Assembly (NCBI GenBank): GCA_965655095.1
Contig: CBFHFQ010000365.1
Location: 1 to 64,000 of the forward strand
Direction: 5' to 3'
From: Haplodiscus bocki
Taxonomy: Eukaryota
Length of the DNA: 64,000 bases
This document shows positions 6,001-30,171 of the stretch, piece by piece; position 1 is the stretch's first letter, and every line of letters starts with the position of its first letter. A model generated the notes under the pieces. That model searched no databases, was not told the origin of the DNA, and saw nothing but the letters and a program-made list of their open reading frames with translations. The translations under genes were made by a program, and so were the position numbers.

Positions 6001-6038
6001 GGGATAAAGTAAAAGTTCCCTAAATTTGAAAAAGTTCA

Positions 6039-6450: not shown

Positions 6451-7621
6451 TCTTGGATGAATGACTTATAAATTGCGTTTCAAACCATCAACTATTACTC
6501 ATGGGGAAGATTAAGCGAGTTCGTAGGTTTCATTGCTGAGGAAGAAATCCTCGGCGCGAAATTTGCGAGTTATGGCAAATTTTTGGTCAAATTTTTCTTC
6601 AAATTTCAGCTTTGAATGGCGTCTTTCTGTCAGCCCTCCATCTGCAAGTGAACGATGAAGGAGTTTTCTTTCCTGTTGACATTTCGTCAGTTTCCTTTGT
6701 AAAAGCGAGAAACAACCTATCTTAGAGTCAAAACGCCGGTCTAAGCGAGTGTATAGCTTGAAGACGGTATTTCATATGCTCGAACGAGCTGAACTTCTTT
6801 CGGTTAGTTCCTTCACGCATTTAATTAGTTCTTCAATGTGGGACGACAATGGTGGAACAAACGCATTGATCCTTCAGTCAACATCGTTGGATGTCAATCT
6901 TCCTTCTAATTTATGCTTTGCCAGATTGCTTATTCCATCAATACCCAATTTCGCAAAGTAGCTTTTGTCTCTACGCTCAAGGAGCTGTTTAATTGGTTTT
7001 CTTCTAGCTTCACCTATCCTAATAATTACAGGTAGAATTTGAGAAGAAGAAACTCGAGGTATGATTGATTGGACTAGGAAGATCAGGTGCACACGGTTTA
7101 TCAAAATGCCTGAGATTTTGAAGAGTAAAACTTTCGTAGTCATTCCATGTTGAGCTATTGACTGAACAAGATAGATCAACGTGTGGCCCAAAAACAATCA
7201 CCCTTGGGTACTGATAGTCGTTGCACCTGTACTGAGTGAATATTACATGTACTCTCAACTGTTTGCGTGAAAAATCTAATACTGTTGATTGCGCCTCAGC
7301 ATATCGTCTCGTTAACGTCGCAAATATGCAGCTTCCGGTTCAGTGGAGTAAAATGTCTACGCTTCATTTACAGTCGATTGTTTCGATAAAATAGCTATTT
7401 TTGGTCGAATTGTTGTTATTTTTTCAAAATAATGTGACAAAAAGTTTAAAACTGTAATTTATCGCTCTACAGTAGACTTTACTACCAGACTACTTTTCAG
7501 TTCCAAAATTAAATTTTCTTACGTCGGAAAGACAAACGACAAAACAGTAATATTGTGTTTCACCTTACAGACTTTCTGCTTTTAGGTTTCTTTCTTTTTC
7601 TAAAGCCTAAGACGGTAGGTT

Positions 7622-10600
7622 GGTAGTCTTGAAACTTTAGACTAACAACGCCAATCCAAACTCACTCATCTTAAATCACTTTTTCCCTCACTATCAAACA
7701 CTCTTACCTCATTTTTAATAAATCCCAGGCGACTTCATGGAGTTTTTCCTTGTCTTTTAAAGTTTCGTTAAAGATAATGAGGAGATTGAGGAAATAAAGG
7801 AATAGAATGAGGTAATTTCAGAGATAAAAAAACAGGAGAAAAGGGAAGATGTGAGGTGGAATGAGTTATTGTTGTTGGCCACTACTTTCTAAGCTACTGA
7901 CAGGGAAATGTTTAGGGCAAGAAAAACAGAAAACTCTCTACCCACGTCAATCCAAGATTATCAGCAAGTAAAAAATTCACTACCCATGTCTACCCAATGT
8001 CAACTTACTGTAAAACTTCATAACTTGTCTCCCTTCCAAGTAATTTATCTTACATTTTTCAAATAAAAATATATTATTGCGTCTTCAAATTTGGGGAAGG
8101 TTAAAAAGACTTATGTTTTTACGCTTAAACAATGCCCAGACCCAGCTTTTACCAACAAAACGTGGTTCGACTTAAATTAGCTAAGCTAAAAATGGTGAAT
8201 AGTAGTCTTCGCGATGTTTATTCTATGAGAATAGAATACCACAGAAGAAGTGATGAACACGTTTTTTCCTAATTTATTATGCTATCAAAAAACTGATGAC
8301 GAAAGATTCGTTTTTGGTTCCCAATCTATGTTTGACTTGCTCAGGAAACGCCTAGGACATTTATCAATGTCTACTTAGAACTTCATGTAACAGAAGACTT
8401 GAGTATTTGTTTTTTCTAGACATGAGATAAAAAACTGAAAAAGAAAATTTAACTAATTGAAAAATCAAACACTCTCATCTGAGGAATGTTTTTATAAACA
8501 TGCTGAAGACCGAATTGAAAAAATGACTAAAATAAAAGTCTCACATTTTTTTGCTGTAGGTGTCCCTTACGTTTACTATGGATTCAGGTTTCACATCACA
8601 AACACCTACTCGAACTCAAAACTACGAATCTGAAAAGACAATTCAATGTTAAACTCATAGAACTGAGAAAACGATTAGTCCGAAAAACAATTGTCGAAAG
8701 AAAATGGAATTTCAGATTGAACAATTAAACAAATTAGGATTGACATGGATATTGACAGTCCAGATGAAAAAAGTATTCCATAAAGACCTCCTAAAGAAAA
8801 TGTCTGACACAATCCAATATCAAAGACTGTTTTGCAATATAACGCGAGGCCGAAAGTAAATTTGATGACGACCACAAAGATAGATTTTTCCACGAAATTG
8901 AAGTATATAACAAATGGAGATCGCAATACAGCTGGTTTGACAGACAAAAATCCTCATCGCTACAAACACAAACTAAAAAAGGAGCCGAACTAGTGGCTAT
9001 TGTACTAACTAGCAGAAAAAAATTACAATATAAAAGGGGTTAGGATTATCGCATTATAAACTAAAATTTTTGAGTTGAAAAGAGAAATAATTTTTTTTGG
9101 AGTTAACGAAAAAACAATAGTGAAACTCATGAAGAATGACGGACAGAGTTTCGAAGATTTGATAGATCATGTAGAAGTGAATTCTTCAACAATATTGCTG
9201 CAAATTAGTTTTACAATTTGGATTATATTCAGAAGAGAAAAACTAAAACACCAGGAATTGAAACAAACGATTCGAATGAAAAGAGAAGTAAAGAAATTGT
9301 TTTTCAAAAATGGGAGATTATCTTCTGTGGAGGAGCTTTCGAATGCATTTAAAAAAGAAAACTTTTAGAAAAAAACGCTGCAGAGTTTCAAAAGATTTGA
9401 TATGCCACGAACAAATGTATCATTGGAATACGACAACTTTATAGACAAATATAGCAAAACTCCTATAAATTTTTGGAGATAAAGGTTCATTTGGTAGTTC
9501 TGATGATGCAGATGAAGCACTAAAGTTACTTTAACTGTCGAAAAAAGACGAAGAAGGGATATTGGCCAAAATTCAGAAATGGAAACAGACAGATGATATC
9601 CTTTAATCGTTTTATTATTTCTTAAAGCAAAAAAACCACAATGAATATAAAAAATACAGAAGTACGACATAAACTAGGAGTCAACATTGATATAAACAAC
9701 AGACATAGTAAGTTTAAAAAATTTTGGTTTTGTAAAACTTCATCCAACTAAACGCACATATTGGGTCGCATACATCAGGTTTGAAAAGGTTTTGTTTCAT
9801 TTGATCGCCCTCAACCAAAGGTAAAAACTGACTTTCTGATCCGAAGAAATGAAAAGTTTTTTTTTCAAAATTAATATCAAGAAAGAAATATGTACTCAGC
9901 AGCCTATTGTTTATATATTATATACAAAAGAAAAAGTAGAAAGTTGGATTTCGAATCAGTACTTTAACAATTACATTAGAATGAAATTGATTAGAGTAAA
10001 AACAAAAAAAAAGATAACAGCGTGATAAAAGCAACAGTCAAAAATTGTTGTTCAAAAATAAAAAAGGTGAATATAACGAAAAATGGTTGGATGAAACCAA
10101 AACGAAACAAATATCAAAAAATACAGATGAGCGTACAACAGCTAATTTTTCTTTGCAAGTGATGGAAAAACTGAAGTTGAAAAATAAAAGTAATGACAAA
10201 AGACGGACAAACTTTTTCTAAGTTATGATAAATCAAGTAGAAGAGAGTTCTATAACAATGCTCCTTCCAAAAATAAGTAGCACGATTTAAGTTGTTTTCA
10301 GACGAAAAAAAACTGAGACAAGAACAATTGAAAAAACTGATCTGCATGAAAAAGAACTTTTTTATGATTGAGAGAGTATCTTCGTTCATTTTATTACCTT
10401 TCAAAAGAAAAAAAATACATCACATTAAAAAAACAGAAGTACTGCAGAAATGAAGATAAGACAATGATCTATACATCAGAGATGGTAAAATTAAAAGAAC
10501 ATAGGTTTTGTAATCGTTCATTCAATTGGAGGCAGACATTGATTCGCATAAACAAATGAAAATGGTTTGTTACATCTGATTGTCCTACAGCAAATGCTTT

Positions 10601-11930
10601 AACTGACTTTCCAACTAGATTTAGTTCTTCAAAAATAGAAAAAAGGGGAAAAAACATATACTATGCAGTGTATCACTTATAAATTGCTTAACTGACAAAA
10701 AGTTGTAAAAAGTTTTTCAATCGAAGTTCTTACATTCAAATCTTAACAAAATTACCACTGGGAAAGACAAATTTGACAACAGTGTTAGGTACGTGAAAAT
10801 CAAAAAAATAATAGCAAAATTGAAAGTAGTGCTTTTGTGAACAGCGAGAAAAATTTTTTTCCCAGCAATTATATGATAAAACTTTTATCGAGCAAACACT
10901 TGAAGGCTAATAATTATTAACGAACAAAATATCCTCGTTTGTGAATTCAAAAAAATTTGATGTTTTTATTGAGCAAACTGAGTTACAGGAAGTTTTATGT
11001 TTTCAAACAGATAAACCAAAGGATTTTTGCGAGTTTGGTATACTTATAAAGTGATTGGAGGAAAAACGGATGATATATTTAACACGTTTTGAGGTAAATG
11101 TTTTCATTTGAAAGATAACAGAAGAAAGATATAATTTTAAATTTCAAGTGACATAACATTGAGAAAAACCTGGACCTAATAACGGAGTAAAAACAGTTTT
11201 CTAGACAAAAGAACTCGAAATTCAAACGATAGCGAAAAACTAGTTCTAAAATCTAACATATATTTAGCGCATCCTTAACTGGCTGCTAGAAAACAAATAT
11301 CGGCGGGATTAGGAAGAGAAATCATTATATTGAGTTTATGGGTTTTTAGAATGGTTTCAACAATTGACGAATTTGTATTTTTTTTGTAAGTTCAAGCAAT
11401 ATAACCAATTATATAAATTTTTTCTTTTACCAGCTGGAAAATTTGAACAAACTGATATTGATAACACTTTGACATCAGGTTTAGCAATTAGCAAAAACGA
11501 AAATTATTTGAAAGTATTTTTATATGTGAAATCTACAGAGACTGAATTTTGAAACTTGTCAGTAAATCATTCTTCGATTCATTATCAGGACATATAAGGA
11601 AGAAGTAGGCATTAGCAAAAGATATTAGTTGGAAACATGTTTTAATCACTGGAGAAGATAAAGTTCTTTTGAAATGTGATGGTTTGACCGGAAATTTTGT
11701 ACAACGAATCAGACAACCTATCCTGTACATTTTTCTAAAAGTGAAACCAGTTGATTATGAATTATGACGTAGTTTCACTAATGCAAAAATGTACAGAAGA
11801 GGTGGTCTGATTTTTTTGTACAGAAGTTCCAGCAAAACAATCACATTTCAAAACAACTTTATCCCAAGTTTTCGGAAGATTATCCGTTGATAACGGGATA
11901 GCACTTTTTAGAGATTGACGAGAAAAATAG
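7622..11930 (+). mobile_element. Duplicated left arm of the Maverick (terminus, protease and first penton remnants), truncated at the duplication junction
   Basis: Copy of 13797-18090; contains VKLHPTKRTYWVAY (~9732) and LLPAGKFEQTDIDNTL..DKVLLKCDG (~11420-11690). Confidence 0.85.
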
Positions 11931-13796
11931 AGTTTATTATTCACTCGACAAGGGGGAAAATAGGAAAAACTATATGACGGCCAATTACCAATCAAGGTGA
12001 TGATAGTGAAGAATGTTTCAGCAAGCTGTTTTTTTGGATAATGGATTGAACAGCCAACATTGAACAGTCCAACTTTTTTGAGGAGAAGGGCAATTTTTAA
12101 GTGCTTACGCTTGACTTCAACGGCAGCAATTGGTTATTGTGATAAAGCTAATTAGTGCGGGCTAAAGTAAAATTTCCCTAAATTTGAAAAAGTCCACCCT
12201 GACACGCACAAACACAATTCACGTAAATTACCTGCGGGCGCAGATAACTTTCCGCCAGTTACCTGCGGAAACCGCAGGCAATCGTTACCTGCGCAAACTT
12301 TTGCCTACAACTGCAAGTATTTTTACCCGCAGAGCAGTTTACCTGCGGCCGCTGCAGATAATTTTTCTCGCGCCAGTTTACAGTGTCCTTTGGCATTTTT
12401 TCACATCCGATACATTTCGAAAGAATCTGAATGGGGAAATTTTCTATTTTTGAAATTACACACATTTCTTCGACTAAAACTGCAAGTTCCAGGCTCCAAT
12501 CTCTCTTGTTCAGTTTTTCACAAATTGCCAAGCGAAGGAGAAATTCAGCAAATGCCAAAAATGGGGCTCGAGCGAATGAATTTTTGCTTGGAGTTTTTGC
12601 CCGGAAAACCCAAAATATGAAAATTTCTTGGATGAATGACTTATAAATTGCGTTTCAAACCATCAACTATTACTCATGGGGAAGATTAAGCGAGTTCGTA
12701 GGTTTCATTGCTGAGGAAGAAATCCTCGGCGCGAAATTTGCGAGTTATGGCAAATTTTTGGTCAAATTTTTCTTCAAATTTCAGCTTTGAATGGCGTCTT
12801 TCTGTCAGCCCTCCATCTGCAAGTGAACGATGAAGGAGTTTTCTTTCCTGTTGACATTTCGTCAGTTTCCTTTGTAAAAGCGAGAAACAACCTATCTTAG
12901 AGTCAAAACGCCGGTCTAAGCGAGTGTATAGCTTGAAGACGGTATTTCATATGCTCGAACGAGCTGAACTTCTTTCGGTTAGTTCCTTCACGCATTTAAT
13001 TAGTTCTTCAATGTGGGACGACAATGGTGGAACAAACGCATTGATCCTTCAGTCAACATCGTTGGATGTCAATCTTCCTTCTAATTTATGCTTTGCCAGA
13101 TTGCTTATTCCATCAATACCCAATTTCGCAAAGTAGCTTTTGTCTCTACGCTCAAGGAGCTGTTTAATTGGTTTTCTTCTAGCTTCACCTATCCTAATAA
13201 TTACAGGTAGAATTTGAGAAGAAGAAACTCGAGGTATGATTGATTGGACTAGGAAGATCAGGTGCACACGGTTTATCAAAATGCCTGAGATTTTGAAGAG
13301 TAAAACTTTCGTAGTCATTCCATGTTGAGCTATTGACTGAACAAGATAGATCAACGTGTGGCCCAAAAACAATCACCCTTGGGTACTGATAGTCGTTGCA
13401 CCTGTACTGAGTGAATATTACATGTACTCTCAACTGTTTGCGTGAAAAATCTAATACTGTTGATTGCGCCTCAGCATATCGTCTCGTTAACGTCGCAAAT
13501 ATGCAGCTTCCGGTTCAGTGGAGTAAAATGTCTACGCTTCATTTACAGTCGATTGTTTCGATAAAATAGCTATTTTTGGTCGAATTGTTGTTATTTTTTC
13601 AAAATAATGTGACAAAAAGTTTAAAACTGTAATTTATCGCTCTACAGTAGACTTTACTACCAGACTACTTTTCAGTTCCAAAATTAAATTTTCTTACGTC
13701 GGAAAGACAAACAACAAAACAGTAATATTGTGTTTCACCTTACAGACTTTCTGCTTTCAGGTTTCTTTCCTTTTTTAAAGCCTAAGACGGTAGGTT

Positions 13797-14190
13797 GGTA
13801 GTCTTGAAACTTTAGACTAACAACGCCAATCCAAACTCACTCATCTTAAATCACTTTTTCCCTCACTATCAAACACTCTTACCTCATTTTTAATAAATCC
13901 CAGGCGACTTCATGGAGTTTTTCCTTGTCTTTTAAAGTTTCGTTAAAGATAATGAGGAGATTGAGGAAATAAAGGAATAGAATGAGGTAATTTCAGAGAT
14001 AAAAAAACAGGAGAAAAGGGAAGATGTGAGGTGGAATGAGTTATTGTTGTTGGCCACTACTTTCTAAGCTACTGACAGGGAAATGTTTAGGGCAAGAAAA
14101 ACAGAAAACTCTCTACCCACGTCAATCCAAGATTATCAGCAAGTAAAAAATTCACTACCCATGTCTACCCAATGTCAACTTACTGTAAAA
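13797..14190. repeat. Left terminal repeat of the Maverick (unit U 13797-14073 plus inner inverted segment 14074-14190); second copy at 7622-8015
   Basis: Arms ggtagtcttgaaactttagactaacaac and gttgttggccactactttctaagctact are imperfect reverse complements. The inner segment aagtaaaaaattcactacccatgtctacccaatgtca matches the reverse complement of 29835-29870. Confidence 0.8.
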
Positions 14191-15794
14191 CTTCATAACT
14201 TGTCTCCCTTCCAAGTAATTTATCTTACATTTTTCAAATAAAAATATATTATTGCGTCTTCAAATTTGGGGAAGGTTAAAAAGACTTATGTTTTTACGCT
14301 TAAACAATGCCCAGACCCAGCTTTTACCAACAAAACGTGGTTCGACTTAAATTAGCTAAGCTAAAAATGGTGAATAGTAGTCTTCGCGATGTTTATTCTA
14401 TGAGAATAGAATACCACAGAAGAAGTGATGAACACGTTTTTTCCTAATTTATTATGCTATCAAAAAACTGATGACGAAAGATTCGTTTTTGGTTCCCAAT
14501 CTATGTTTGACTTGCTCAGGAAACGCCTAGGACATTTATCAATGTCTACTTAGAACTTCATGTAACAGAAGACTTGAGTATTTGTTTTTTCTAGACATGA
14601 GATAAAAAACTGAAAAAGAAAATTTAACTAATTGAAAAATCAAACACTCTCATCTGAGGAATGTTTTTATAAACATGCTGAAGACCGAATTGAAAAAATG
14701 ACTAAAATAAAAGTCTCACATTTTTTTGCTGTAGGTGTCCCTTACGTTTACTATGGATTCAGGTTTCACATCACAAACACCTACTCGAACTCAAAACTAC
14801 GAATCTGAAAAGACAATTCAATGTTAAACTCATAGAACTGAGAAAACGATTAATCCGAAAAACAATTGTCGAAAGAAGATGGAATTTCATATTGAACAAT
14901 TAAACAATTTAGGATTGACATGGATATTGACAGTCCAGGTTAAAAAAGTATTCCAGAAAGACCTCCTAAAGAAAATGTCTGACACAATCCAAGGTCAAAG
15001 ATTGTTTTGCAATATAACGCGAGTCCGAAAGTAAATTTGATGACGACCACAAAGATAGAATTTCCCACGAAATTGAAGTATATAACAAATGGAGATAGCA
15101 ATACAGCTGGTTTGACAGATAAAAATCCTCATCGCTACAAACACAATCTAAAAGAGGAGCCGAACGAGTGGCAATTGTACTAACTATCAGAAAAGTTACA
15201 ATTAAAAAGGGGTTAGGCTTATCGCATTATATACTAAAAATTTTGTGTTGAAAAGAGAAATAATTTTTTAAGGAATTAACGAAAAAACATTAGTGAAACT
15301 CATGAAGAATGACGGACAAAATTTCGAGGAATTGATAAATCATGTAGAAGTGAATTCTTCAAAAATAATCCTGCACAAGATTTTTAGAATTTGGATTATA
15401 TTCAGAAGAGAAAAACTAAAACACCAGGAATTGAAACAAATGATTCGAATGAAAAGAGAAGTACAGAACTTGGTTTTAAAAAATGGGAGATTATCTTCTG
15501 TGGAGAAGCATTCGAATGCATTTAAAAAAGAAAGCTTTTAGAAAAAAACGCTGCAGAAAGTTCCAAAAGATTTGATATGCCACGAACAAATGTATCATTG
15601 GAATACGACAATTTATAGACAAATATATCAACACTCCTTTAATGTTTTGGAGATATAATTTCATTTGGTAGTTCTGATGATGCAGATGAAGTACTAATGT
15701 TGTTTTAACTGTCGAAAAAAGACGAAGAGGATATATTGTCCAAATTTCAGAAATGGAAACAGACAGATGATATCATTTAATCGTTTTATTTTTT

Positions 15795-16140
15795 CTTAAA
15801 AAAACAACAATGAATATAAAAAAAGTACGACATAAACTAGGAGTCAACTTTGATAAAAACAACAGACATAGTAAATTTAAAAAGTTTTGGACTTGTAAAT
15901 CTTCATCCAACTAAAGGCACATTTTGGGTCGCATACATAAATGGAAAAGGTTTTGTTTCATTTGATCGCCCTCAACCAAAAGTAAAAACTGACTTTCTGA
16001 TCCGAAGAAATGAAGAGTTTTTTTTACAAAAATAATATCAAGGAAGAAACATATACTCAGCAGCCTATTGTTTATAAATTATTTACAAAAGAAAAAGTAA
16101 ACAGTTAGATTTCGAATCAGTATTTTGACGATTACATTAG
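15795..16140 (+). pseudogene. Adenain-like cysteine protease of the Maverick (copy at ~9620-9980)
   Basis: GLVNLHPTKGTFWVAYINGKGFVSFDRPQP ... YQGRNIYSAAYCL corresponds to GTHWV.Y..YFDSFG..P ... Q....C..YC; catalytic His and Cys positions are mutated. Confidence 0.85.
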
Positions 16141-17499
16141 AATGAAGTTGAATAGAGTAAAAACAAAAACAGATAACAGCGTAATAAAAGTAACAATCAA
16201 AAATTGTTGTTCAAAAATAAAAAAGGTGAATATAACGAAAAATGGTTGGATGAAACCAAAACGAAACAAATATCAAAAAATACAGATGAGCGTACAACAG
16301 CTAATTTTTCTTTGCAAGTGATGGAAAAACTGAAGTTGAAAAATAAAAGTAATGACAAAAAACGGACAAACTTTCTAAGTTATGATAAATCAAGTAGAAG
16401 AGAGTTCTCTAACAATGCTCCCTCAAAAAACAAGTAGCACGATTTAAATTGTATTCAGACAAAAAAACTGAAACAAAAACATTTGAAAAACTTGATCTGC
16501 ATGAAAAAGAACTTTTTTAGAATTGAGAGAGTATTTTTGTTCATTTTATTAGTTTCAAAAGAAAAAAACTACATCACATTAAAAAAACAGAAGTACTGCA
16601 GAAATGAAGATGAGACAATGATGTATACATCAGAGATGGTAAAATTAAAAGAAAATTGGTTTTGTAATTGTTCATTCAGTTGGAGGCAGACATTGATTCG
16701 CATAGACAAATGAAAAATGGTTTGTTACGTCTGATTGTCCTCCAACAAATGCTTTAACTGACTTTCCAATTAGATTTAGTTCTCCGAAAATAGAAGAAAG
16801 AGGAAAAAACGTATACTGTGCAGTGTATCGCTTATATATTGCTTAACTGACAAAAAATTTAAAAAAGATTTTCAATCGGAGTTCTTACATTCAAATCTTA
16901 ACAAAATTACCACTGGGAAAGACAAATTTGACAACAGTGTTTGGTAGGTGAAAATCAAAAAAATAATAGCAAAATTGAAAGTAGTGCTTTTGTGAACAGC
17001 GAGAAAAAATTTTTCTCCCAGCAATTATATGATAAAACTTTTATCGAGCAAACACTTGAAGGCTAGTAATTATTAACGAACAAAATATCCTTGTTTGTGA
17101 ATTCAAAAAAATTTGATGTTTTTATTGAGCAAACTGAGTTACAGGAAGTTTTATGTTTTCAAACAGATAAACCAAAGGATATTTGCGAGTTTGGTATACT
17201 TATAAAGTGATTGGAGGAAAAACGGATGATATATTTAACAAGTTTTGAGGTAAATATTTTCATTTGAAAGATAACAGAAGAAAGATATAATTTTAAATTT
17301 CAAGTGACATAACATTGAGAAAAACCTGGACCTAATAACGGAGTAAAAACAGTTTTCTAGACAAAAGAACTCGAAATTCAAACGATAGCGAAAAACTAGT
17401 TCTAAAATGTGACATATATTTAGCGCATCCTTAACTGGCTGCTAGAAAACCAATATCGGCGGGATTAGGAAGAGAAATCATTATATTGAGTTTATGGGT

Positions 17500-18130
17500 T
17501 TTTAAAATGGTTTCAACAATTGACGAATTTGTACTTTCGTGAAAGTTCAAGCAATATAACCGATTATATAAATTTTTCCTTTTACCAGCTGGATAATTTG
17601 AACAAATTGATATTGATAACACTTTGACATCAGGTTTAGCAATTAGCAATAACGAAAATTATATGAAAGTATTTTTATATGTGAAAGCTACAGAGACTGA
17701 AGTTTGAACTTTGTCAGTAAAACATTCTTCGATTCATTATCGGGACATAAAAGGAAGAAGTAAGCATTAGCGAAAGACATTAGTAGGAAACATGTTTTAA
17801 TCACTAGAAAAGATAAAGTTCTTTTGAAATGTGATGGTTTTGGTGGACATTTCGTACAACGAATCAGATAACCTATCCTGTACAGTTTTCTAAAAGTGAA
17901 ACCAGTTGATTATGAATTATGACGTAGTTTCACCAATGCAAAAATGTACAGAAGAGGTGGTCTGATTTTGTGTACAGAAGTTCCTGCAAAACAATCACAT
18001 TTCGAAACAACTTTATCCCAAGTTTTCGGAAGCTTATCCGTTGATAACGGGATAGCACTTTTTAGAGATTGGAAAGAAAAATAGGGTTGATTTTGAAGTC
18101 AAAATCTTAACTAAATTCTACTTCATTATT
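17500..18130 (+). pseudogene. Minor capsid (penton-like) protein 1 (copy at ~11340-11930)
   Basis: LLPAG*FEQIDIDNTL, DKVLLKCDGFGGHFVQRIR*PILYSFLKVKPVDY and VDFE match the Polinton minor-capsid pattern PGxY ... LKCD.I.GS..NG...PILYSF ... VDFNGE. Confidence 0.75.
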
Positions 18131-18339
18131 ATTGAAAAAATAAAACAATCTCAGCGTTAAATTTTCAATTAACGTTTTGTATAATCTCATATACAAACTT
18201 TTCTCGAGTGAGTTTCCCAAAAATTGAAAAAAAAATTGACCAAGTTTTGTTGATCTTAATGGGAAAACTAAAATTTTTCAAATTTTATCAATAAGAAGGA
18301 ATAAAAAGGTAACCGAAGAATTTGTTGAAAAAATATTGG

Positions 18340-19660
18340 AATTCTACTTATAATTGAAAGAAGACAAAAACTCTTATCAAAGCAGCAAAAGTTAGCCCCT
18401 AAAAACAATAGAATTCAAACAGAATGAACCAGTAAATATTTTCCATTTTGATACTCCCTTAAAACCAAAAGAACGCAAATAGTTGTTAGGGTTGAATAAC
18501 TTCAAAATATGTGTTTTTTCAAAAAGATCTTAAGAAAATAATGTTTCTTGAATCTTTTGTCCTGGTTAAAAGACATCGAATGAAAATCAATTAAGGAACA
18601 CTAAAAAAGAAATAGTTTCCTACATGTCCCCATAGGGGGCTCTGCTACACGAACCCATTGATGTCATGAAAATTTGTTGATTAATCTGTGAGAAAAGAAG
18701 GTTGAAGCTTTGAAAATGTTGAACATAGGGATTTTGACTAGTTGTTATTCAGACTGATTTCAACAAATGATTTGAAAACCATTCCATTGATTCTTTTTCA
18801 GCAGTCTTTCACCAGTATTCCCCAGGTGTATATGAGATTGTGGGCATCCACAAAATTTCATGTAAATTTTCTTCCCATTACTTTAGGAGAAGTATTTTTT
18901 CTAACGGAAACATAAAAGATAGCTTTTTTTCGGGAATAAGACTTAAAAACTGAAAAACTACGACCACATGGTATGAAAAGATTGATATAATTCAAAACTT
19001 TTGAAGAAAAAATGAAAAAAAAATGGAAAAAGAAAGAATTTAACATTAGATCAAGATGCAATCTTTTGGAAAACCTTTTTTTTAGGATTTTGTTAAAAGT
19101 GTTTTTTTGAGACTTCCAAAGCTATTTTAGAGTACGAAGGATGTCAAAAGACAAAATGGCTTTTTTAAAATACCTTGTTCCTAGTTTTGTTAGATTCGAG
19201 ACACCTAACAACCATACAGTGTAATTTAAGGCACATAATATTATTACATCAAAAGACATAATGAAAGAATCGTTTTCACTGATGTTACAACGGATTAAAA
19301 AAGAGTAAAAAAACAAATAACAATTTCAGGTTCGATGAGAAGTTAATTTTAATAAAACTACTAGATGTGTCAGCGAGTTTTAATTTTGAGAAACTTGTAA
19401 AGGTGACACCAAAAGACGAATAATCTTCAATATGAATTTAGGCCTATGACTCTTTATTAAGTAGTACAAGAGAACCAAGGCCTTGAATTTTTTATTAAAC
19501 AATTTTTTGAAAAAATATTCATTGCGAACAGGAAACATTACACTATAAAAAACCTACCCATACTGAAAAAAAGCAACATTCTACTTGGAAGACGTTGAGA
19601 GGCACAGGAAAGACTTCAATGGTGATATTATGAGCTTTAGTTTATTTTCGTTTAATTGCT
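18340..19660 (+). pseudogene. Second, longer minor capsid (penton-like) protein
   Basis: IEFKQNEPVNIFHFDTP..LLGLNN (N-terminus), PGVYEI (~18821), YDSLLSSTREP (~19445) and DFNGDIMSFSL (~19612). Confidence 0.65.
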
Positions 19661-19989
19661 AAGTACAGAACTTGGTTCAAACAGATGTAAAAACTCTTGT
19701 AAACAACTGAAAACAATTTTTTTTCAAAAAACTCTTCAGAAATTCAATTAATATTTGATATTGCCTTTATTGGTGAAACATTGTGCTTTACTTCAATATT
19801 AAAAAAGTTTAAACAACTACCACGGTTGTTTGAGCCACTGTAATTCGAGGAGTCACTCTACCGGCAAACTTTCAATTTACACTGTAAATGAACTTCCTAA
19901 AACTTGCCTCTAAGCGAGTTTTAAGAACATATGATTGATTGCTACTATAGCCTTCATCTCTGGCAATTCTTTTTCCCAAAAATAATGTC

Positions 19990-20385
19990 ATGGAAAAAAA
20001 AGAACCAATTTTTTTTCATTGGTGGACGTCATTATTCTAGGACAAAGAGAATAGAATGTGAATAAAAAACAGGTCAAAAGTCATAAATTGATGAGAGTGT
20101 TATTTGTAATACTAAAAAGTCAATAGCTGTAAAATATATTATAATAGAGGCAGAAGCTTTAGGTATGGTTCTCAAAAGCTTCGGAAAAACTTATTCCGAA
20201 GTAGGTAAAAAAAGGTAAAAAAACAGATACAGCTTTAAAAAAATCCTGGAAGTACAATGGAGCTTGGAGTGAAAAATTGGTAGTGCAGCTATATCTAGAA
20301 ACTCTACAGCAGCATTATATACAAACTCACACCCAATAGACTTTTATCAAACTTTTGAAGGATTATATCTTGGAAAATTGGTCTA
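19990..20385 (+). pseudogene. Small Maverick ORF with an amphipathic segment (possible pVI/pX-like core or membrane-active protein)
   Basis: GGRHYS..., IEAEALGMVLKSFGK and KNPGSTMELG..IGSAAISRNSTAAL..DFYQTFEGLYLGKL; functional label is inference. Confidence 0.45.
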
Positions 20386-20389
20386 CACT

Positions 20390-20900
20390 ATTGAGTACTA
20401 CAAAGTTGTACCCCTCTGCTACAGTGCAAACAATTATTGATTTTGAAGAGAGGTTAGAAGTAAACTATACGGTATAAGTAACTTTGTTAACTCCAATATC
20501 AATGTGAAAGAGGAGAATACCCATTTCAAACCAAAAAACAACGAAGACAAAAAGTATTGAAGAGAAAGTCGGCGACTATAATGAAATCAGTTGATACAAT
20601 TGATCTCCTTGCTACAAGTTTAAACAAAATCTGTGGTAAAATTTATCACATGATATGCGATCTTGGTAATACCAGTACCAGCTGGAGTAGCGTTTGGATT
20701 GACATCAAGTGAAAAGTAAAACCTGTGAGTGTTCTCTCAAAAGTATTAATATCAAAAACTTTAATTGGAGAGCACATCAGACTGTCGATTCTTTTGACAA
20801 ATTTCAAGGGGAAGATTTACGAGATAATTTATTCGACAGAAATGAATATCATTGTATTTGTAAAGATAATTACAACACTGGTGATTGGAAGCAATAAGAA
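20390..20900 (+). pseudogene. Maverick ORF of unknown function with a hydrophobic central stretch
   Basis: KSATIMKSVDTIDLLATS..LVIPVPAGVAFGLTS ... DSFDKFQGEDLRDNLFDRNEYHCIC. Confidence 0.4.
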
Positions 20901-21214
20901 GGTTTCCATAAAAATATTGTTCGGAAAAGAGTTTTTCAGTAATAATAGTTAAAAACTGAAAGTAGGAATTTTCCAGAAGTGAACACTCGAAACTTTTTAG
21001 ATGCTAAACATGTAAAGGACTTCATTTTTTCAAAATTTGTAAAAAGAATTAGGATGACAGCAATTTTTATACAGTAAATTGAAAAGAGATGGCCGGCCGT
21101 TTTTTAGTAAGAGAATTAAATGTCACAATTGTGGAGGAAGTTTGTCGAAAACAGTTGATTACACGTATTGAAAAGGAACACAAACAAGAGTTGTTGCCGA
21201 TGGCGTCCTAAATT

Positions 21215-21780
21215 TTAGTTAATACTAGAAGCTTAAGTTTCGCACCGTCTTTGTCAGGTGAGTCTTAATCCATACCGAAGATAACTGAAAAACAATAAAA
21301 ATAGGGATCTTCCCATTGAAACCCGGTCTCTTGATCCCAAAGTTTACAGATGATTGCAGTTAAAAAATAAGCAAACGAACATGAAGATAGTCTTGCTTTT
21401 TGGCTATTTGTTGGATCATTGTCATCAATACTTTCACCTAATTTTACAAATCGTCGACAGAAAGATTTAGATTTAATATCCATCCCTAACATTTTTTAAA
21501 ATTACAAAGTAGTTACAAGAAATAACAGTAGCATAAAATTTTTAAATAAACAACCGCCGAAAGACGTGGTACAAATGTATAGATACATAGCTGGAATTGA
21601 TGGTTTATGATGATTTTAAGGGTCATTGTCGAGAAGCATTGAAAGATGAATACTTTAGTTATTTTCAAATTGATATTTATAAAACAAAAGCGAAGGACCG
21701 TTTTTCATTTGAAACGAGATCAAGCAAACTGATTTTGAACGTACACCATAATCAACCCCATTTCAATAAATGTTATCATT
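21215..21780 (+). pseudogene. Genome-packaging ATPase (FtsK-HerA/A32-like)
   Basis: Decayed Walker A NTRSLSFAPSLSGES*, arginine-finger region FTNRRQKDLD, then VTRNNSS..KQPPKDVVQMYRYIAG..YDDFKGHCREALKDEYFSYFQID; homologous to the ATPase at 55250-55700. Confidence 0.8.
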
Positions 21781-21789
21781 GATGTATTT

Positions 21790-22400
21790 CATCGAAAAAA
21801 AAAAGAAGAGCTGGATGAACTCATAGAAATGGGGAACTTAAGTCATGTAGTTGAGAATTTTTGGTCACAAGAAAAACTACCTAAACAAATTGTGAGGTCA
21901 CACATTGTTAGAGTTGTAGATACAAAAAAAAGGTAATCGAAGAAGGTCAATCTAGAAGCGAGAAAAAATTACTGACGAAAAAACAAGAAAAACTGAAAAA
22001 AATCTGTCTAATATGAAATCAGTGACTGATTTAATGGAAACAACTGCAATTTTTCTAAAAGGTGAAAAGAATAATGCTGATTCAGATGGCGTTACCATAG
22101 TGAATGATGATGATAAAGGTACTGATGACACGAGGATAAACCGAACCACAAAGCTTTCCACGGAAGAAGATACTGAATATATAAATTGAACAAAAATCTT
22201 GGTTATTATTATATGGAAAAAGCGAAGAGAAGAAGCAAATACTTAATTTTCGGGATTAGTGGCTTTCCCGTCGGAAAATGTTGATGGAATATAAGATAGT
22301 TTACAAGTGGTTATCCAAAACAGAACAAGTTCGAAATGACAACAAACAGTTCATAATGAAATTGTTGCATTAATTGATTTAATAACACAAACTAAATGAA
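21790..22400 (+). pseudogene. Conserved Maverick ORF with a C-terminal DPNEL..RL.LL..GN-type motif
   Basis: FPSENVDGI*DSLQVVIQ..NDNKQ.HNEIVALIDL is homologous to PSDPKQPMGTLGLLYYEERGGKQSNVLSQERTALLDK at ~55040-55190. Confidence 0.5.
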
Positions 22401-22449
22401 TAACTAAGGCTCAACACTAAAACTTTTTGACCGATCTTGACCTGAATCA

Positions 22450-23090
22450 ATTTTTCTAAGATGAATGAAATGCATGAAACAGATGTACCATTCCAAAATT
22501 GTGATTACATCCGTTTTACACCTCTTACTTTTTGAGCTGTAAAACACGTGCACTCTCAAATTTTTGGGTACCCTCAAAGAAAAGATAGTGGTATATCGTT
22601 GAATGAAAGTTATCTTCAAGTAGATTTTCATGTAATTCGAGAATAGGATGCACGACTTAGAGCTGCCACATGTGAAATTTGTTACATTAGGACGTTTTGC
22701 TTTTTTCTGTAATTTTAAAACAACTGCAAGTAGTGGAAATTATTTTAGGACAGTTGATCTCGCACATCCGATATGTTTAATGTATAAATCATAAGAAACC
22801 AGTGAAAAAGAAGAAGGTTTCTCATTTGTTTTTAAAAGTGATCGCGATTGTACGCAAGAAGAATTAACGAATGAGGCAAAGGGAAGAAAGTTCCATTTTA
22901 CGATTTATTTAAGAGATGCTTTCGCATCTGCTGAGCATCTTGAAAATGGTACATATAGTCTAGAGGTGAAAATTGATTCTGAAATTGAAAAGAGATCATG
23001 ATGATTTTAATTGCGGACGTGGAGCTAAAGCAAGACTCATTTCAAAAAACAGTAGCTGCTATATACTACCTTATACAAACTTTATACCAG
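22450..23090 (+). pseudogene. Major capsid protein (double jelly-roll), N-terminal half only
   Basis: NCDYIRFTP..KDSGISLNESYLQVDFHV, LGRFAFFCNFKTTASSG..VDLAHPICLMYK and FTIYLRDAFASAEHLENGTYSL; homologous to 56520-57690. Confidence 0.75.
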
Positions 23091-23539
23091 ATGATGTAAA
23101 ACTCAGTAGACATTTCTAAAATTCGGACTGATTTCAGATGAAATGAAAGCTCTGACAACCGTAAATAAGACAAAGAAGATTGTAGAACGCGAAAAAAAAT
23201 GCCGGAAGTTGAAGTTCAATTGAATTTATTTCAAATTATTTTCATTTACTGAATCGAAAATATTCCGCTTCTGCACAACCTACTAAAGTAGAAACAGGAA
23301 ACTGCAAGGTTTTCCAGTAAAAAAGCAGTTACTGGCTGTGTTGTCTTATTGACAATCAATACTTTGTCATTTCAAAGCAAAGGACACAGACAATTTGACC
23401 TATAATTAAAACCAAAAGTGACTAATTGGTTTTCAAATGAATGCATGACGCAGGATTTCGTAACAATTGCAATGAAAGTTTCACTAAAACTGTATATTAT
23501 AAAAGCAATATTTCAAATTGTTTTAACCTGAAAATAAGT

Positions 23540-26500
23540 GATATGTTAAAGAGAGAATTTTGGGAAGAAAACGGTCGTTTTTGAAGAAGAAATTGTTTTT
23601 CTTTCAAGATAATATACTTTACTCTCACGAAAGTGATCCCATAACCTTCTTTTATTACTTTGCTCATTAATTGAGTTCAGGGGTACTTTAGCAATTTCAC
23701 GAGAAAACGAGACGATCTTTTATCTTTCTTTCTAAATGATAGTTGTCTTCAAAGAAATTCATAGCCTCTTTTTCACGTCGGGCAACTATAAAAATCATTC
23801 AATTCAATTTGATCTTGGAACCATCTGGTTTTTTAGATTTCAGTTCTTTTCTTTGTCATCAGAACACACAAAGAATTATAACTTTGCTCTTACTACACTT
23901 GAGTTTTTCAATTCAAATCTTTTCGGGAGTTTTTATTTTGTTTTTACGAAGAACTGTTTTTTTCACAATTTACAACAGATAAATGTTTTATTCGATCCAA
24001 TAAACTTGAAAAAAATACCTTCATCAAGCTTTTGACCTAGTCTTTCTGTTTGAAACAAAGAAAAAACGAATCCAAATAGTTATTGTGTAAATCAAGGTTT
24101 CGCGGTTAGGTTTTAATACTATTTAATAGGTTTCATAGACATGTAATTTAGAAGTCTCTTATAAACGATTTCCTAAATGTATTGATTTTTTGAACATTTA
24201 TGTTTTTCATTTAAGAGAGAGGCAATCAAAATCACCACAAAAATTTAAATCTCTATTTGTGTTTTGTTTTGTTTTTTATACGTTCCCCCAGTGTCATCAG
24301 AGTTATTGAGCAATAAATCAAGTCAATTACGTACAATTTTGATTGATTTTTCATAAACTGCATTGCTTAATAGTTTACAAAATTACTGGAGATTGTCATT
24401 CTTTTCCGCCACTCTTCTCCTTGTTTTTCAAAGCTCACCACTCTAAACTCTTCAGTTACATCCATTAGTTGGGAAATCGGAATTTTTTTTTCTACAATGT
24501 ATAAAACATTTTCTATGTTTTTTTTTAACACAAATGAGGATCTTTTATGGGTACTAAACTAATGGTCAGGTCTGTTTCATGTCAGCAAATTATTTAGTAG
24601 TTGGTATAATTTTTGTGTTTCGTACAGAATGAGAAAACAGAAAAGCTGGATTCTTGAATTTTTGTTTACTGTAAATTGTTTTCCGCATTCTTTTCAAAAT
24701 CAGACGTACATTTAGTATTAGGTATTTCATACAGACTCACATTTTCTGTGAACTGTATGTCTGCAAATGGTTAAATTTGAGACATTCCACGACCTGAAAA
24801 TTTATTCGTATACATTGATTTCAAAAGTCTTGCCCCCAAACATCCAGATAACCACTTCTAATAGCATTCTTATAAAGGACATAAAAGTTCCTGGATCTTG
24901 TAAAAGGTCTTGAAAAGTTTCCTTTATTTCAATCCAGAATGCCAACTGAAAACAGGTAAAGATAGAAAACGTGATTGCAGAAAAAATTTTTGTGTATGGC
25001 ATGTTTCAAAGGAAATTTTAAATACATTCGCTAAAGGTGTAACATCTGTTTTTCTAAAAATCCTGACAAATCCCTACAGGTGGTTCCAAGATCTTATCTG
25101 CATTTCTTGATACAGTTTTGGCTCTATGTTTTACTCTTCTTTTCAGTTTGGTTAATCGATTTGGCATAATTTTCCATCTAACGGAATTTTTCATAAAGAT
25201 TTGCACAAAGTCCTAAAAAAAGAAAAGTCTTTTGCAAGTACTGTTTTGGCATTTTTCAATTTTCGTTTATGTAAGAATCTCGATATGTCTTCTGACCTAG
25301 CTTTTGAAACCCTTTATGAGTCCTTAAACTTCGAAAAAGCATAAAGTACAGAAAAAAATTCTTCAAAAATGTAGAAATTACTTCACAACTTATCCAATTA
25401 GGTCTACAACCTTTTGATTTTTTTGTGAACCATTATGAATTAAACTCATTAAAAATATCTAAAAACTTGCGGAAACAAGGGAAGATTGTTTTCCCAATCG
25501 ATCAAGTTACATTATTGGTTAGCTGCTCCTCTATTTGCTCCTGTTAGCTGGAAACTATCTCTTTTTCGTATTTCTAAAGCTCTAAGATTTTTTCCACATA
25601 ACCAACAACTTTTTGCTCTCAAAAGTCTGTTTTACGTGTTTCCGCCGATTTTCAATTCTATTGCTTTTTGATTTAAAAAATACTGTCTGGTATTTGCATT
25701 CCTCCTACAAACCATTATTTACAAAGAGCACCAAAGAACATGAGGACATCCCAATGGAATAACATCAGGTACGTCTGCTTCCACATAGTAATTAGGAGAC
25801 TAGTTTTTGAAGGAACTTTTTTCCAGTTTTGTCCTACTCGTTTTCAAATAAATGTGCACACCTACACTGCAAAAGACATTGTATCAAAAAGGTTTGTATC
25901 CTTGAAGATTTGTATTGCAAGACTCATTAGAAACAAGCTCAATTTTGACTCAATAAAACCCTTACTGAAAGACGTGAATTCAAACATTTTCGGAATAACG
26001 AAGGTTATTATAACGTTTTTCACCATCTTGAAAAAATTCAAGCAATTTTCTCATTAAAAGGTAAGGTCTTTGGTATGAACTTAGATCAATTGTTTCATTG
26101 CTTTCAAAATTAGATTTAGTTGCAAGCAAACTATCAAAACTGTTCTGAAGCATGTTTTTTCAAACTTTCTTTGGTTGTTGCTGTTTTCTTCATACGTAGA
26201 ATTGACGCAAGGTTTTTGTCAAATTGTAATCCAAATAAAAATGTACTTAGTTGGTTCAGGTTTTCTTTTTTTATATCATCAGTATTTAACCGTCAGTAAT
26301 ATCAATTCCAACTCTTTCAATTTCTTGAAGATATTTTGAGTCGGTTTCTACACTTTTATGGCTGATATCTTGGCTGATGTAATAAAATCTAGCATACTAT
26401 ATACACCACACTCTTCATCTTTTGTTTTCTTTTCCTTTTATTGACTGCTTTCTCTTTGGTATTTCTATAAATGATGATCCTTTTGTTACTTTTCATTCGA

Positions 26501-26850
26501 ATAAGTATAATCTCACTAATAGAAACTCGAAAAGTAGTCAACTTGAGCCTCTGATCTCAATAGTTTCAATCTCATTTAGTTTTTTTGTGAGAACTTTACA
26601 AAAATAACGTTCCTTTCAGTTTCTTCATATTGGAATACAGGAACTATGAAAAGTTTTTTTTGTTAACTTTTTTGAAATGAAGCCTAGCTTGTTACCCTGT
26701 ACTTGCAAACAGCTGTTGATTTCCTTGAGTCTTAGCTCCTATAACAGAGGTGTAAACGAAAATTAAACATATTTTATTTTAAAAAAGTTGTTTCTAGAGT
26801 ACTTTAATGTTGAGAATTCCGCAAAAAAAATTTGAGTTTGAATAGATTCT
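23540..26850 (-). pseudogene. Protein-primed family B DNA polymerase (pPolB)
   Basis: In order on the minus strand: KGSSFIEIP (~26480), CWLCG..DSFQLTGANRGAANQ*CNL (DHCH..G.YRG.AH..CN, ~25505-25600), RKTDVTPLANVF (~25020-25055), NAIRSG (IRGG, ~24860), SKLHVYE (~24135), LDSF (DTDS, ~24070). Confidence 0.9.
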
Positions 26851-28859
26851 AATATAGTGTCACGTGCCAATTCAGTTGGGAGGGCAAAAAAATGATTTCA
26901 CATTCTTCTGAAATTGTAATTTTATGCGTTTTGTTATCTTCATGAGCTGCATTTGATTTACAAGTTCACTTTCTTGTAACACGAAATCATCTATAAACGA
27001 TTTTAAATTAAATTTTGTTCTCGCCAACGTTGTCGGTTTCACTTTAACGCCTAACTGCAGTTGTATCTTTAACCAATGGTTCATTTGAACATTTCAATTC
27101 TCTCTTTTTCTATATGTACATATATAAATATATATAAATATATAAAACAATTTTTGTTTTTACCGTCTTGCTCTTCTGCAGTCTTTCTATGCTGTTCGGA
27201 GATTCTCTGATCTCGAAAATTTGTGCTAATCTATGTTTTCTTACAATCGAGCGTTTTGTTTTTTTTTCGCCTGTAACAACGAAGTGTTTTTCGCATTTGT
27301 CACGCTCACTCTAACCAGTTTCATGTGAAGCTTGTCCTAAAATTCTACAAGGCTTAGTGTTGTTACTTTGTAGCTCCGCTCATTAAACTATAAGTTTGCT
27401 TTGATTGAAAAAAGTCAATTCCTTTCGAACGAGTCTTCATCCTCACTTTCATTTTGAACTTCAATTGGATATACATACATGTCAATTTTATTGAAAAAAT
27501 GTTCTTTTGTTGATCGAAATGGCCGAAAGTTGATTTTTGACGGCCGAAAATCTTTTTTCAAACGAAAAATTTTAAACCCTCACAGAAAAAATTACAACGT
27601 TGACTTCTATCAGAAAAGCATCAAACGCATTACTTTCTGTGATACCTTGACGTTTTGTTTTAATTGTCTTGTTGAATATCGGTTTCTTTCTTAGCATTAA
27701 ATCTGCACTGTCTGTAAAAGTTTATTTATTTCTTCTTTCTTGGTAACATTTTTTATGAAAATATTTGGACCAAGTTTTTTTTGTTTCAAATCAATTGCTG
27801 CAGCTCTTTTACTTTGCCTAAAAAAGATTCTCTTTATTTCCACCGAAATTGTTTTGTCCACTACTAATGAATTTATTCCGTCGATTGTAGTCGTTCTTTA
27901 TTTCCAAGAAGTGCATTTGAGATGAGGTACTACAAAATGTAGTCTAAGCTGAAGAATTCCTGACAATTGACTAACAAAATTCTTACTACTGAGGAACAAG
28001 TCGCAATTATTACAACAATTTTGGGAATAGTTTTCAATGTTCTTTTGAAAATTGATCAATGTAACTTCTGACTTTTTCAATTTTTTACTCTGATGAAAGT
28101 TCCTTTCTTATATTTTCTTTTAAATGATAAGTACAACAATATACACCATACTACTACCAAGTTCTTGAATGTCTTTAATAAGATTTATAAAAGGATATTA
28201 GAAATGAATGAACTTGTATAAAAATTGTAACTTTTTCCATTTTTTCCAAATGACACTTTTCATAATTCGAGGAAGCTGATTTTTGGGAACTGACTTGTGT
28301 ATTATTGTATCTGTTAAATTGGGATTCAGTTCTGTAATTGTTGGAGCAATATTAAATTCCCCATCTTTGTTTTCAATAAGTTTGCAGACGTTCTGCGAAT
28401 TGCTGAGTTCCTCATCGTATGATGTAGTCCTTTATACAAAGAAAACTTTCATTGCATTTGTTTCTTTTGAGATGGTTTTAATTCAATTGCTTCATTCAAT
28501 TTTCTATCACATAATTTACAAAACTCACAGAATCGATTTTAATCAGCATTTTCATCGTAATTGTTATCAATATGAAAAGTGATCTTTAATTATTTTTTGT
28601 TTTTTTTTCATTGAAATAAGTATGACAAACAACAATGATTACACACCTTCATGGCTCCTAACTGTGTTATTTACATTTTTACAATTTTTAAATTTCGCTT
28701 CCATACCTATTGCAGGCAAAGGTTTTTTTTTAAAAAAATGTTCATTAAAAAACACTTTTGATCATCCTTCTCTAACAAACACCCAACTCTAATACTCACA
28801 CTTTTCCGCAAATGCTCGATTTTTTGACAAATCTTGTAGTTTTTTTGAATACAAAGTAC

Positions 28860-29690
28860 GTTTCCAAGTACAGCCTCAATTTGTGTTACTGGTTTCTTTT
28901 TTGATTTCAAAAATCGGTTCTTTACAGCTTTAGGGCAATGTTTCTGAGTACCAAGTTGGTATTGCATCTCCTACACTTTTTGTAAATCTATAATGTTCAT
29001 AACTACAATTTGAAATATCTCCTGTAGAGAAATTGTTACTTAGGTTAGATGTTCGTATTCAATCTCATATTTCAAATATTGATTTTCTCTTCTTACGATA
29101 ATCTTCGGAAATACTGTAGGCTTCACTTTCAAAAGACTTTATCTCTACTCATTTTGGTGTCATTTTTCTTGAAAGGATGAATATAGTTATCCTTTTTTCA
29201 AGTCTTTATGGTTTTTTGTCAAACCAGTCTGCATTTCTCCCTTCGAATCTCGGTTTTTTAGGGGAAGATCATAGTTTGTTCTACTAATTTTTTTTTCGAA
29301 AACTGCTCCTTTAAAATATACTTAGTAAGTTTTTTGATGACTTTATTTAGTGAGATTACTGTAGAACTTTACTTACAAGTTCTTCCTGATCATCTGCTTT
29401 TAATAAACTTGTTTTACAATGGGATTTTCGAATCACTTTGGAAGAATCATTTGCTTAGTTCGAGATTTTTATTTTTGAATGGTATTCTGTTTTATATGGT
29501 ATCCACTTTCACTAAAAATATCAATCACAACTAGAATTTATCTATGTCATGAACTTTTCTTTCTTTCATAATCAGTCGCTTTTATTAGAACCAAACTCCA
29601 AGTTTTGTCCGTGTCTTAGACGACAGTTTTTTTGGTGTCATGTTTTTTGCAGCGGACTTAGAAAAACTTTTTCATTATATATGTCACCTA
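28860..29690 (-). pseudogene. Retroviral-like (RVE) integrase of the Maverick
   Basis: DKTWSLVLI..DY..ILVVIDIFS, LLKADDQEELV (TD.G.EF), KGAVFEKKISRT (ER.NRT), ADWFD, IRTSNLSNNFSTGDISNCSY. Confidence 0.88.
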
Positions 29691-29819
29691 ACATTTAATT
29701 TACCATTGCAAAGTAGATTTACGAAATAGTTGATCATGCTTGCCCAATTTTGAACGCACGTTACTCTTTTTTCTTTGGAAAAGGAAAGTATTATACACCG
29801 AAACTAAAGGAAAATCCTC

Positions 29820-30171
29820 TTAATTTACCGGATTATGACAGTGGGTGGGCATGTTTAGTGAATATATTACTTCTTTTGGTCTCACCTTTTTGCCTATCAG
29901 TAGTCTGGAAATTAGTGGCTAGCAGCATCAAACCAACCCAACTCATGCTCACTAACCCTTTATTCCTCACTTTTTTTTCTTACTACATTTCTCCCCAACC
30001 GTTTTCGATATGAACGAATTTTTTTCATTGATTTATTTCGTTAGAGATAAGGAGGAAAATGAGGAAACAAAGGCAAAAAATGAAGCATTTATTCGCAAAT
30101 TTTTGAAGGAAAATAGGAGAGATGTGAAGTGGATTGGACTTCTGTTGTTAGCTACTAATTTTGAGGGTATT
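29820..30171. repeat. Right terminal repeat of the Maverick (inner inverted segment 29820-29898 plus unit U 29899-30171)
   Basis: agtagtctggaaattagtggctagcagc ... gttgttagctactaattttgagggtatt. The core ttcgttagagataaggaggaaaatgaggaaacaaagg matches 13939-13975 on the same strand. Confidence 0.8.

Follow-up and report, generated by a model that had tools for sequence, protein, structure and literature searches.

The element at positions 13797-30171 of a 64,000-nt stretch of Haplodiscus bocki DNA (contig CBFHFQ010000365.1 of assembly GCA_965655095.1, positions 1 to 64,000 of the forward strand; hereafter the window) is, judged by its polymerase, integrase, and protease remnants, its size, and its end motif, an old, decayed Maverick. 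We found that its ends are of an imperfect hairpin type and lie on the same strand, with the Maverick end motif at all readable tips and with the sequence inside them inverted. Each end carries a unit, U, composed of an arm, a spacer, and a second arm (A-S-A'), and U is followed on its inner side by a subterminal sequence, D, which gives the layout A-S-A'-D ... D'-A-S-A' between unrelated outer DNA. By analogy with the rolling-circle replication of adeno-associated virus (AAV), we propose, with a probability of about 0.4, that both ends were copied from a single D'-U-D junction. An earlier note, made from the letters of this DNA, had called the element a Maverick and had described the A-spacer-A'-D layout, and both of these claims stand.

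The two copies of U, U_L and U_R, have the limits that the earlier note had given them (Table 1). In local alignments they scored 168 in direct and 91 in inverted orientation, both above all 500 shuffles (maximum 69 and 57). Composition does not explain the gap between the two scores, because a pyrimidine-then-purine make-up is common to the inverted and the direct comparison. The spacer alone scored 66 direct (reached by 0 of 500 shuffles) and 20 inverted (reached by 167 of 500); it thus does not align equally well or better when inverted, and the claim that U and its spacer read on the same strand at both ends was borne out. When the four half-units were aligned from the arm tips in three MAFFT modes, 16, 15, and 11 informative columns had the direct pattern and 3, 3, and 0 the within-end pattern, and in each mode no column (0, 0, 0) had the pattern of a plain terminal inverted repeat (TIR). 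The sole informative column at a tip (column 5) was direct, which is a weak indication from one site. The direct signal lies mainly within 13917-14056. Identity over ungapped columns fails to separate the orientations (0.74 versus 0.76); the inverted alignment needs about twice as many gap columns.

Each U also aligns with itself in inverted orientation above all 500 shuffles (scores of 82 and 76). The arms are reverse complements as had been noted, but the symmetric stretch is only about 30-40 nt long and the right outer tip is badly decayed. The tips read GGTAGT, AGTAGC, and AGTAGT, and the fourth is decayed. An assembly artefact is an unlikely source of the pair, as U_L and U_R differ by about a quarter. 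Apart from a copy in a tandem duplicate, there are no further copies of U, the arms, the spacer, or D in the window. That third U (about 7622-7898) is identical to U_L and lies within a 6.16-kb tandem duplication, and it was rejected as a second data point.

The sequence just inside U is inverted. The block 14141-14274 aligned with 29739-29872 in inverted orientation with a score of 86, which was reached by 0 of 1500 random window segments. The inverted repeat formed by D is contiguous with the inner arms and spans about 200 bp; the earlier note was right about its orientation but had put its length at only 80-110 bp. In the element as a whole, the arm tips and the ~200 bp of D are inverted, whereas the spacer between the arms is direct. 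The other five flank pairs scored at background level, the outer flanks are unrelated, and an early hint that D was also present outside U was dropped because the outer flanks are at background. GC content is 0.31 within the element and 0.39 and 0.37 in the outer flanks, and U and D have diverged to a similar extent (0.74 and 0.79), as for one insertion. Mapping of target-site duplications (TSDs), which the earlier note had proposed, gave none that is readable: the best candidate matched at 5 of 6 positions and was matched or beaten by 1120 of 2000 random pairs, which is chance level.

At 16,375 bp, the element is within the Maverick range of 13-25 kb with (AGT)2//(ACT)2 ends, and its genes form two blocks that are both directed inward. 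Its firmest gene identification is the protein-primed polymerase pPolB; the protease and the integrase are supported as broken remnants. A polymerase profile of 60 relatives matches 25664-24924 with an independent E-value (iE) of 3.3e-10, and further, weaker pieces are collinear. A full HMMER scan with one minus-strand frame of the element returned six proteins. Five of the six were scanned with Pfam; two had DNA_pol_B_2 and three had Endonuclease_7, and the polymerase relatives P0004 and P0006 have both. One of the HMMER-found proteins led to 826 relatives, including a named adintovirus PolB; the 60 of the profile were taken from these. In all, 106 of 126 queries matched the window, almost all at 25.5 kb. 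A word-indexed homologue search with the polymerase frame as query returned 0 of 7245 candidates.

The protease remnant was found with P0001, the atlas look-alikes of which have Peptidase_C5 in 11-62% of their members. It matches a profile of open reading frames (ORFs) from the fetched Maverick loci described below at iE 0.022; the remnant and its relatives have no Pfam match, and a PDB search with P0001 gave nothing better than E 0.14. An old internal duplication (15296-15997 and 16346-16766, ~70% identity) doubles the protease-like gene. For the integrase, a profile was built from the fetched Maverick loci, and its family is Pfam rve. Its two pieces in the window (29648-29508 and 29166-28948) gave the best of 168 tiles with 14.0 bits, compared with 2.3 for the best unrelated tile; the signal of single pieces is weak (iE 0.026; 23.6 versus a null maximum of 22.2). 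No ORF of more than 126 codons is present within the element. Pfam searches of 16 reading frames (stops as X, one strand per region), which have low power on DNA this decayed, returned no family and in particular no Rep/HUH endonuclease. Profiles for ATPase, c7, and c8 gave background only, and neither a packaging ATPase nor a capsid gene was detected, the DNA being decayed, the profiles distant, and no capsid profile verified. Rfam had no match in the window.

Relatives came from one scan of GTDB contigs with a polymerase alignment, which yielded 73 loci (L001-L073) with Maverick-type polymerases within prokaryotic species-representative bins; these loci are probably eukaryotic DNA carried over in metagenome bins. 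Three of the 73 (L035, L011, and L014; family contigs CBDHHI010000001.1, JANQFC010000040.1, and JANQLL010000171.1), which represent two families and form one clade (FastTree, 51 sequences), carry a young, imperfect hairpin of ~130 nt at the polymerase end. It is bounded by (AGT)2...(ACT)2 where complete, and changes in its arms are compensated. Among 242 AGTAGT sites, L035 5614-5742 was outstanding, with a score of 48 on both strands (next best, 31; 95th percentile, 24). This unit is a 129-nt hairpin with (AGT)2 and (ACT)2 tips, in which 19 of 19 tip pairs are perfect and the centre is mismatched, and it folds at z -11 (0 of 200 shuffles). It lies 150 nt ahead of an intact pPolB ORF, at a step in GC content from 0.38 to 0.31; outside it there is no ORF of at least 90 codons, and around it no TSD of 3-9 nt.

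The contigs of L011 and L014 start inside a hairpin unit homologous to that of L035. The two loci are 99% identical to each other, and their polymerases are about 70% identical to that of L035. Compared with the L035 spacer, theirs scored 72-76 in the same and 38-40 in the opposite orientation, and their arms differ from those of L035 on both sides together, with 4 of 8 and 5 of 10 visible positions compensated. Folding of the units gave z values of -3.8 to -11.6 in the young relatives. At the polymerase end all three have the same orientation; each of the contigs stops short of the other end. End-motif screens of the 73 loci (242 and 433 sites) caught only L035 and missed L011 and L014, the outer arms of which are cut by the contig start. 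Because of this, and because the same screens score the decayed arms of the window copy at only 20-26, three of 73 is a minimum count. The palindromes of L002, L047, L062, and L071 are without the end motif and were excluded from the count; that of L062 (1163-1419, a branched palindrome of 257 nt with ~65-nt arms, just ahead of the gene block and without (AGT)2) could be an end or a miniature inverted-repeat transposable element (MITE). We conclude that at least two Maverick lineages genuinely have hairpin ends, the same-strand arrangement being seen in the window copy only.

From the anatomy of the element, the motif at its readable tips, and the co-variation of the arms in the relatives, all of which are observed, we infer the following intermediates. 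The free element would pass through a molecule with a single D'-U-D junction. A circle of this kind is possible because the arms at one end repeat those at the other in direct orientation, and it could arise by recombination between them. The two facing arm tips of the junction would be protein-priming origins. Each new strand would start at one tip, copy U, round the element, and copy U again; the product would be a linear U-D...D'-U molecule with both copies of U in the same orientation, which the integrase would then insert. U would act as a short terminal direct repeat within inverted repeats, like the TRT junction of rolling-circle AAV concatemers. The direct U with no plain-TIR site, the inverted D, the unrelated flanks, and the step in GC content at the ends count in favor of the junction, and the single orientation shared by the three relatives is what a model with fixed orientation predicts.

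Several points weigh against this proposal. There is one two-ended copy only, with ends that are about 25% diverged, and both ends were seen in none of the 73 fetched loci, so the evidence for direct orientation is that of the window copy. L011 and L014 count once, and two lineages would agree by chance in half of all cases. A plain TIR equally predicts a fixed orientation at one end. The polymerase of L035 is distant from that of the window (rank 113 of 180) and the relatives' units have no clear match to the window U (2 to 194 of 200 shuffles reach the scores), so the mechanism of the window element may be other than that of L035. The two window copies of U fold no better than shuffles (z -1.7 to +0.2); fold-back ends, which the earlier note had suggested for this lineage, do occur in the young Mavericks. 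No circle, solo U, or junction was seen, and that an internal tip of a circle would serve for protein priming is a step that we infer.

The earlier note had favored the flip/flop ends of parvoviruses, in which U is inverted at random and independently at each end. In such a rolling-hairpin cycle, the 3' end folds back and primes synthesis; a nick, or protein priming at the inner tip, opens the closed end. The window geometry is one of the AAV isomers, an arrangement expected half the time, and in AAV the inverted terminal repeats (ITRs) take independent orientations (PMC11575299). The fold of the relatives is a full, imperfect hairpin in which the arms are compensated and the mismatches conserved, which can be compared with the flip/flop telomeres of poxviruses that keep their mismatches (PMC8956199). 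Hairpin priming has already been proposed for virophages as well as for polinton-like viruses (PLVs) (10.64898/2026.07.28.741278), but the palindromes of that preprint are mainly in elements without pPolB. A hairpin could be nicked by the endonuclease VII-like domain of the polymerase family, but 138 of 198 polymerases tested have the motif of this domain, which is therefore unspecific to hairpin ends; the domain was rejected as a marker of them. The one orientation in three of three relatives (two lineages) and the two short-read contigs that run through the spacer into the outer arm argue against independent flip and flop; the searches for families, of low power here, gave no Rep/HUH endonuclease either. 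The geometry of the flip/flop signature stands, but the two orientations were not seen, in one two-ended copy and three single ends. We consider independent flip and flop unlikely as the origin of the window ends, and at least as good a fit is the alternative given in the earlier note, in which a circle or concatemer has U as its junction.

A more conventional explanation is an ordinary TIR that starts with a hairpin, one U having been inverted once in the host, after insertion, by way of its own arms. TIRs are the Maverick norm (PMC8097293), and palindromes within TIRs have been reported (10.64898/2026.07.28.741278). The locus is old and rearranged, as the 6.16-kb tandem duplication and the internal duplication show, a genome scan selects for oddities, and the single orientation in the relatives fits. 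Such an inversion requires a crossover in arms of only 30-40 nt, however, and the half-unit alignments, with no column of TIR pattern and a lone, weakly informative direct column at the tip, speak against it; we regard it as a poor prospect. Finally, with its Maverick-type tips on either side, U could serve alone as an integrase substrate, and the direct terminal repeats of KolobokP have TIRs of their own and occur in many solo copies (PMC9587614), but insertion of U at both ends as a MITE or mini-Maverick, or a KolobokP-like composite element, is improbable given that the 64 kb contain no further independent U, that neither U nor the L035 unit is bordered by a TSD, that no part of a TIR lies outside U (the outer flanks being unrelated), and that both copies of U adjoin D at the same position. 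Solo copies of U with 6-bp TSDs would not alone decide between this explanation and a D'-U-D junction, because the junction predicts them too.

Comparison with known systems separates what is familiar in these ends from what is new. Mavericks typically are 13-25 kb long with (AGT)2//(ACT)2-type ends and TIRs (PMC8097293), and nuclease insertions in pPolB are known (PMC10748475). The window element resembles them (PMC8097293, PMC10748475) in its length of 16.4 kb, its pPolB, integrase, and protease remnants, its inward gene blocks, its (AGT)2-type tips, and its inverted subterminal repeats. Unlike them, it has the end motif four times rather than twice, and its outer ~275 bp are direct rather than inverted; a TSD could not be read, and neither ATPase nor capsid genes were detected in its decayed sequence. 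In the Halocafeteria virophages and PLV subtypes, integrated relatives, mainly elements without pPolB, have palindromes at the TIR tips next to TSDs, and hairpin priming was proposed (10.64898/2026.07.28.741278). Those palindromes are of 52 nt and were screened with a gap of at most 10 nt, whereas the hairpins described here are asymmetric, are 130-275 nt long, and belong to pPolB elements, those of the window being in direct orientation. The word "flip" is absent from the text of that preprint; its supplements may show orientation.

AAV2 head-to-tail concatemers made by rolling-circle replication are joined by an ITR with an extra D and have one orientation per molecule, whereas rolling-hairpin products have independent end orientations (PMC11575299). 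The window ends share with the AAV2 ITR and TRT junction the arm-spacer-arm'-D layout, a terminal palindrome with an asymmetric centre beside a unique D. Unlike AAV2, the window element is a double-stranded DNA element that integrates and has pPolB; no Rep was found, no T-shaped B/C arms were shown, and there is no sequence relation. The resemblance is one of geometry only. Like the window element, KolobokP, a composite-like transposon, has terminal direct repeats, each with its own short TIRs. It also has solo copies; a circular intermediate has been proposed for it, and it encodes a His-Me finger nuclease (PMC9587614). It is a DDD/E cut-and-paste element with repeats of 450 or 660 bp and no polymerase, and the part of its description available to us mentions no inverted D inside the repeats (PMC9587614), whereas the window element carries pPolB and an rve-type remnant. 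Some PLVs, members of a related virus group, end in terminal direct repeats (TDRs); in the available text, PLV ends are described as TIR or TDR and not as a direct repeat nested within an inverted one (PMC12747079). Bidnavirus repeats form no hairpins (PMC4061559).

The earlier note knew of no description of such an end structure for Mavericks. Terminal palindromes (virophages and PLVs; 10.64898/2026.07.28.741278) and direct repeats with their own TIRs (KolobokP; PMC9587614) were already known, and what is new is their combination in a Maverick, for which we found no account in the literature. There is no mention of palindromes or hairpins in PMC8097293, PMC10748475, PMC12220804, and PMC8502044, and nothing on hairpin ends of Mavericks in the available text of 10.64898/2026.10.13.758929, PMC6431247, and PMC4061559. 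Neither direct U within inverted D nor end isomers were found for Mavericks in the literature covered; founding descriptions, Repbase entries, and supplements lie outside that scope, so an earlier account is possible.

Present accounts of the exit of Mavericks from the chromosome, of their replication, and of the regeneration of their ends rest on a model (cited in 10.64898/2026.07.28.741278). The replication intermediate leaves its record in the orientation of the ends, where existing assemblies allow it to be read: ends that are all direct would point to a circle with one junction, four isomers to a rolling hairpin, and ends that are all mirror images to the textbook panhandle. The finding makes the route of replication countable, and L035, L011, and L014 indicate a young family in which to count. 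The same-strand fold-back ends hint that some Mavericks copy their ends through a circle or a hairpin, as AAV does. If so, TIR finders would trim or miss such ends, and a TIR-only definition and TIR-based screens would hide them. More broadly, we lean slightly towards the view that in a number of Maverick lineages the ends are hairpins and each of the two tips is an origin. These lineages would replicate by way of a D'-U-D junction like that of AAV, in a circle or as a fold-back, and integrate as same-strand or flip/flop end isomers, and so would combine protein priming with a parvovirus-like end cycle.

Table 1. Features of the element and of its duplicate (positions in the window)
Feature	Position	Strand	Remarks
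Tandem duplicate of left flank, U_L, and first 4.3 kb of element	5772..11938	+	contains the third U
Left terminal unit U_L	13797..14073	+	outer arm (tip GGTAGT, decayed (AGT)2), asymmetric spacer, inner arm ending CTACT
Subterminal D	14074..14274	+	inverted partner of 29739-29898; best block 14141-14274
Adenovirus-type (C5-like) protease remnant, broken	15889..16119	+	tblastn with P0001, E 8e-14
Second protease-like remnant	16658..16873	+	E 1e-5; within internal ~760-bp duplication
Internal 206-bp palindrome	17812..18017	.	probably a later insertion; outside the end structure
pPolB polymerase gene, broken	24078..26714	-	polymerase profile match and collinear weaker pieces; relatives P0004, P0006
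Retroviral-type (rve) integrase remnant, broken	28948..29648	-	two collinear profile pieces; adjoins right end
Subterminal D'	29739..29898	-	inverted relative to left D
Right terminal unit U_R	29899..30171	+	orientation as U_L; inner arm begins AGTAGT, outer tip decayed

The two halves of the tandem duplication (5772-11938 and 11931-18092) are 99-100% identical over a core of ~2.4 kb and 89-98% identical in its flanks; the core is either a conversion tract or two haplotypes assembled in series. The internal palindrome recurs at 11657-11863, and its copy within the element adjoins the end of the tandem duplication. Elsewhere in the window, a repeat with tandem units of ~116 bp is present in two copies (32598-33321 and 42651-43705), and a degenerate repeat family with a periodicity of ~177 bp (3066-4264 and 48944-52278) has inverted copies 45-49 kb apart. 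A dispersed repeat occurs in three partial copies and two orientations (35694-36413, 40020-40279, and 63085-63855); it was rejected as a second Maverick, as no polymerase or interior match is found there. Weak tblastn matches lie near 53.7-54.1 kb (E 0.003-0.005).

Some of the fetched loci have rearrangements of their own. Inverted repeats of 1.5-1.9 kb that contain the integrase gene enclose an ATPase-like ORF in L031 (13167-22174), L052 (13453-23246), L063, and L069. L012 and L032 are 93% identical across 9.3 kb up to the polymerase, where the proteins are only 40.5% identical, a polymerase swap. In L002, a 4.76-kb tandem duplication (11907-21411, 99.6%) covers the 3' part of the polymerase and the integrase, and two near-perfect palindromes of 159-168 nt lie upstream.

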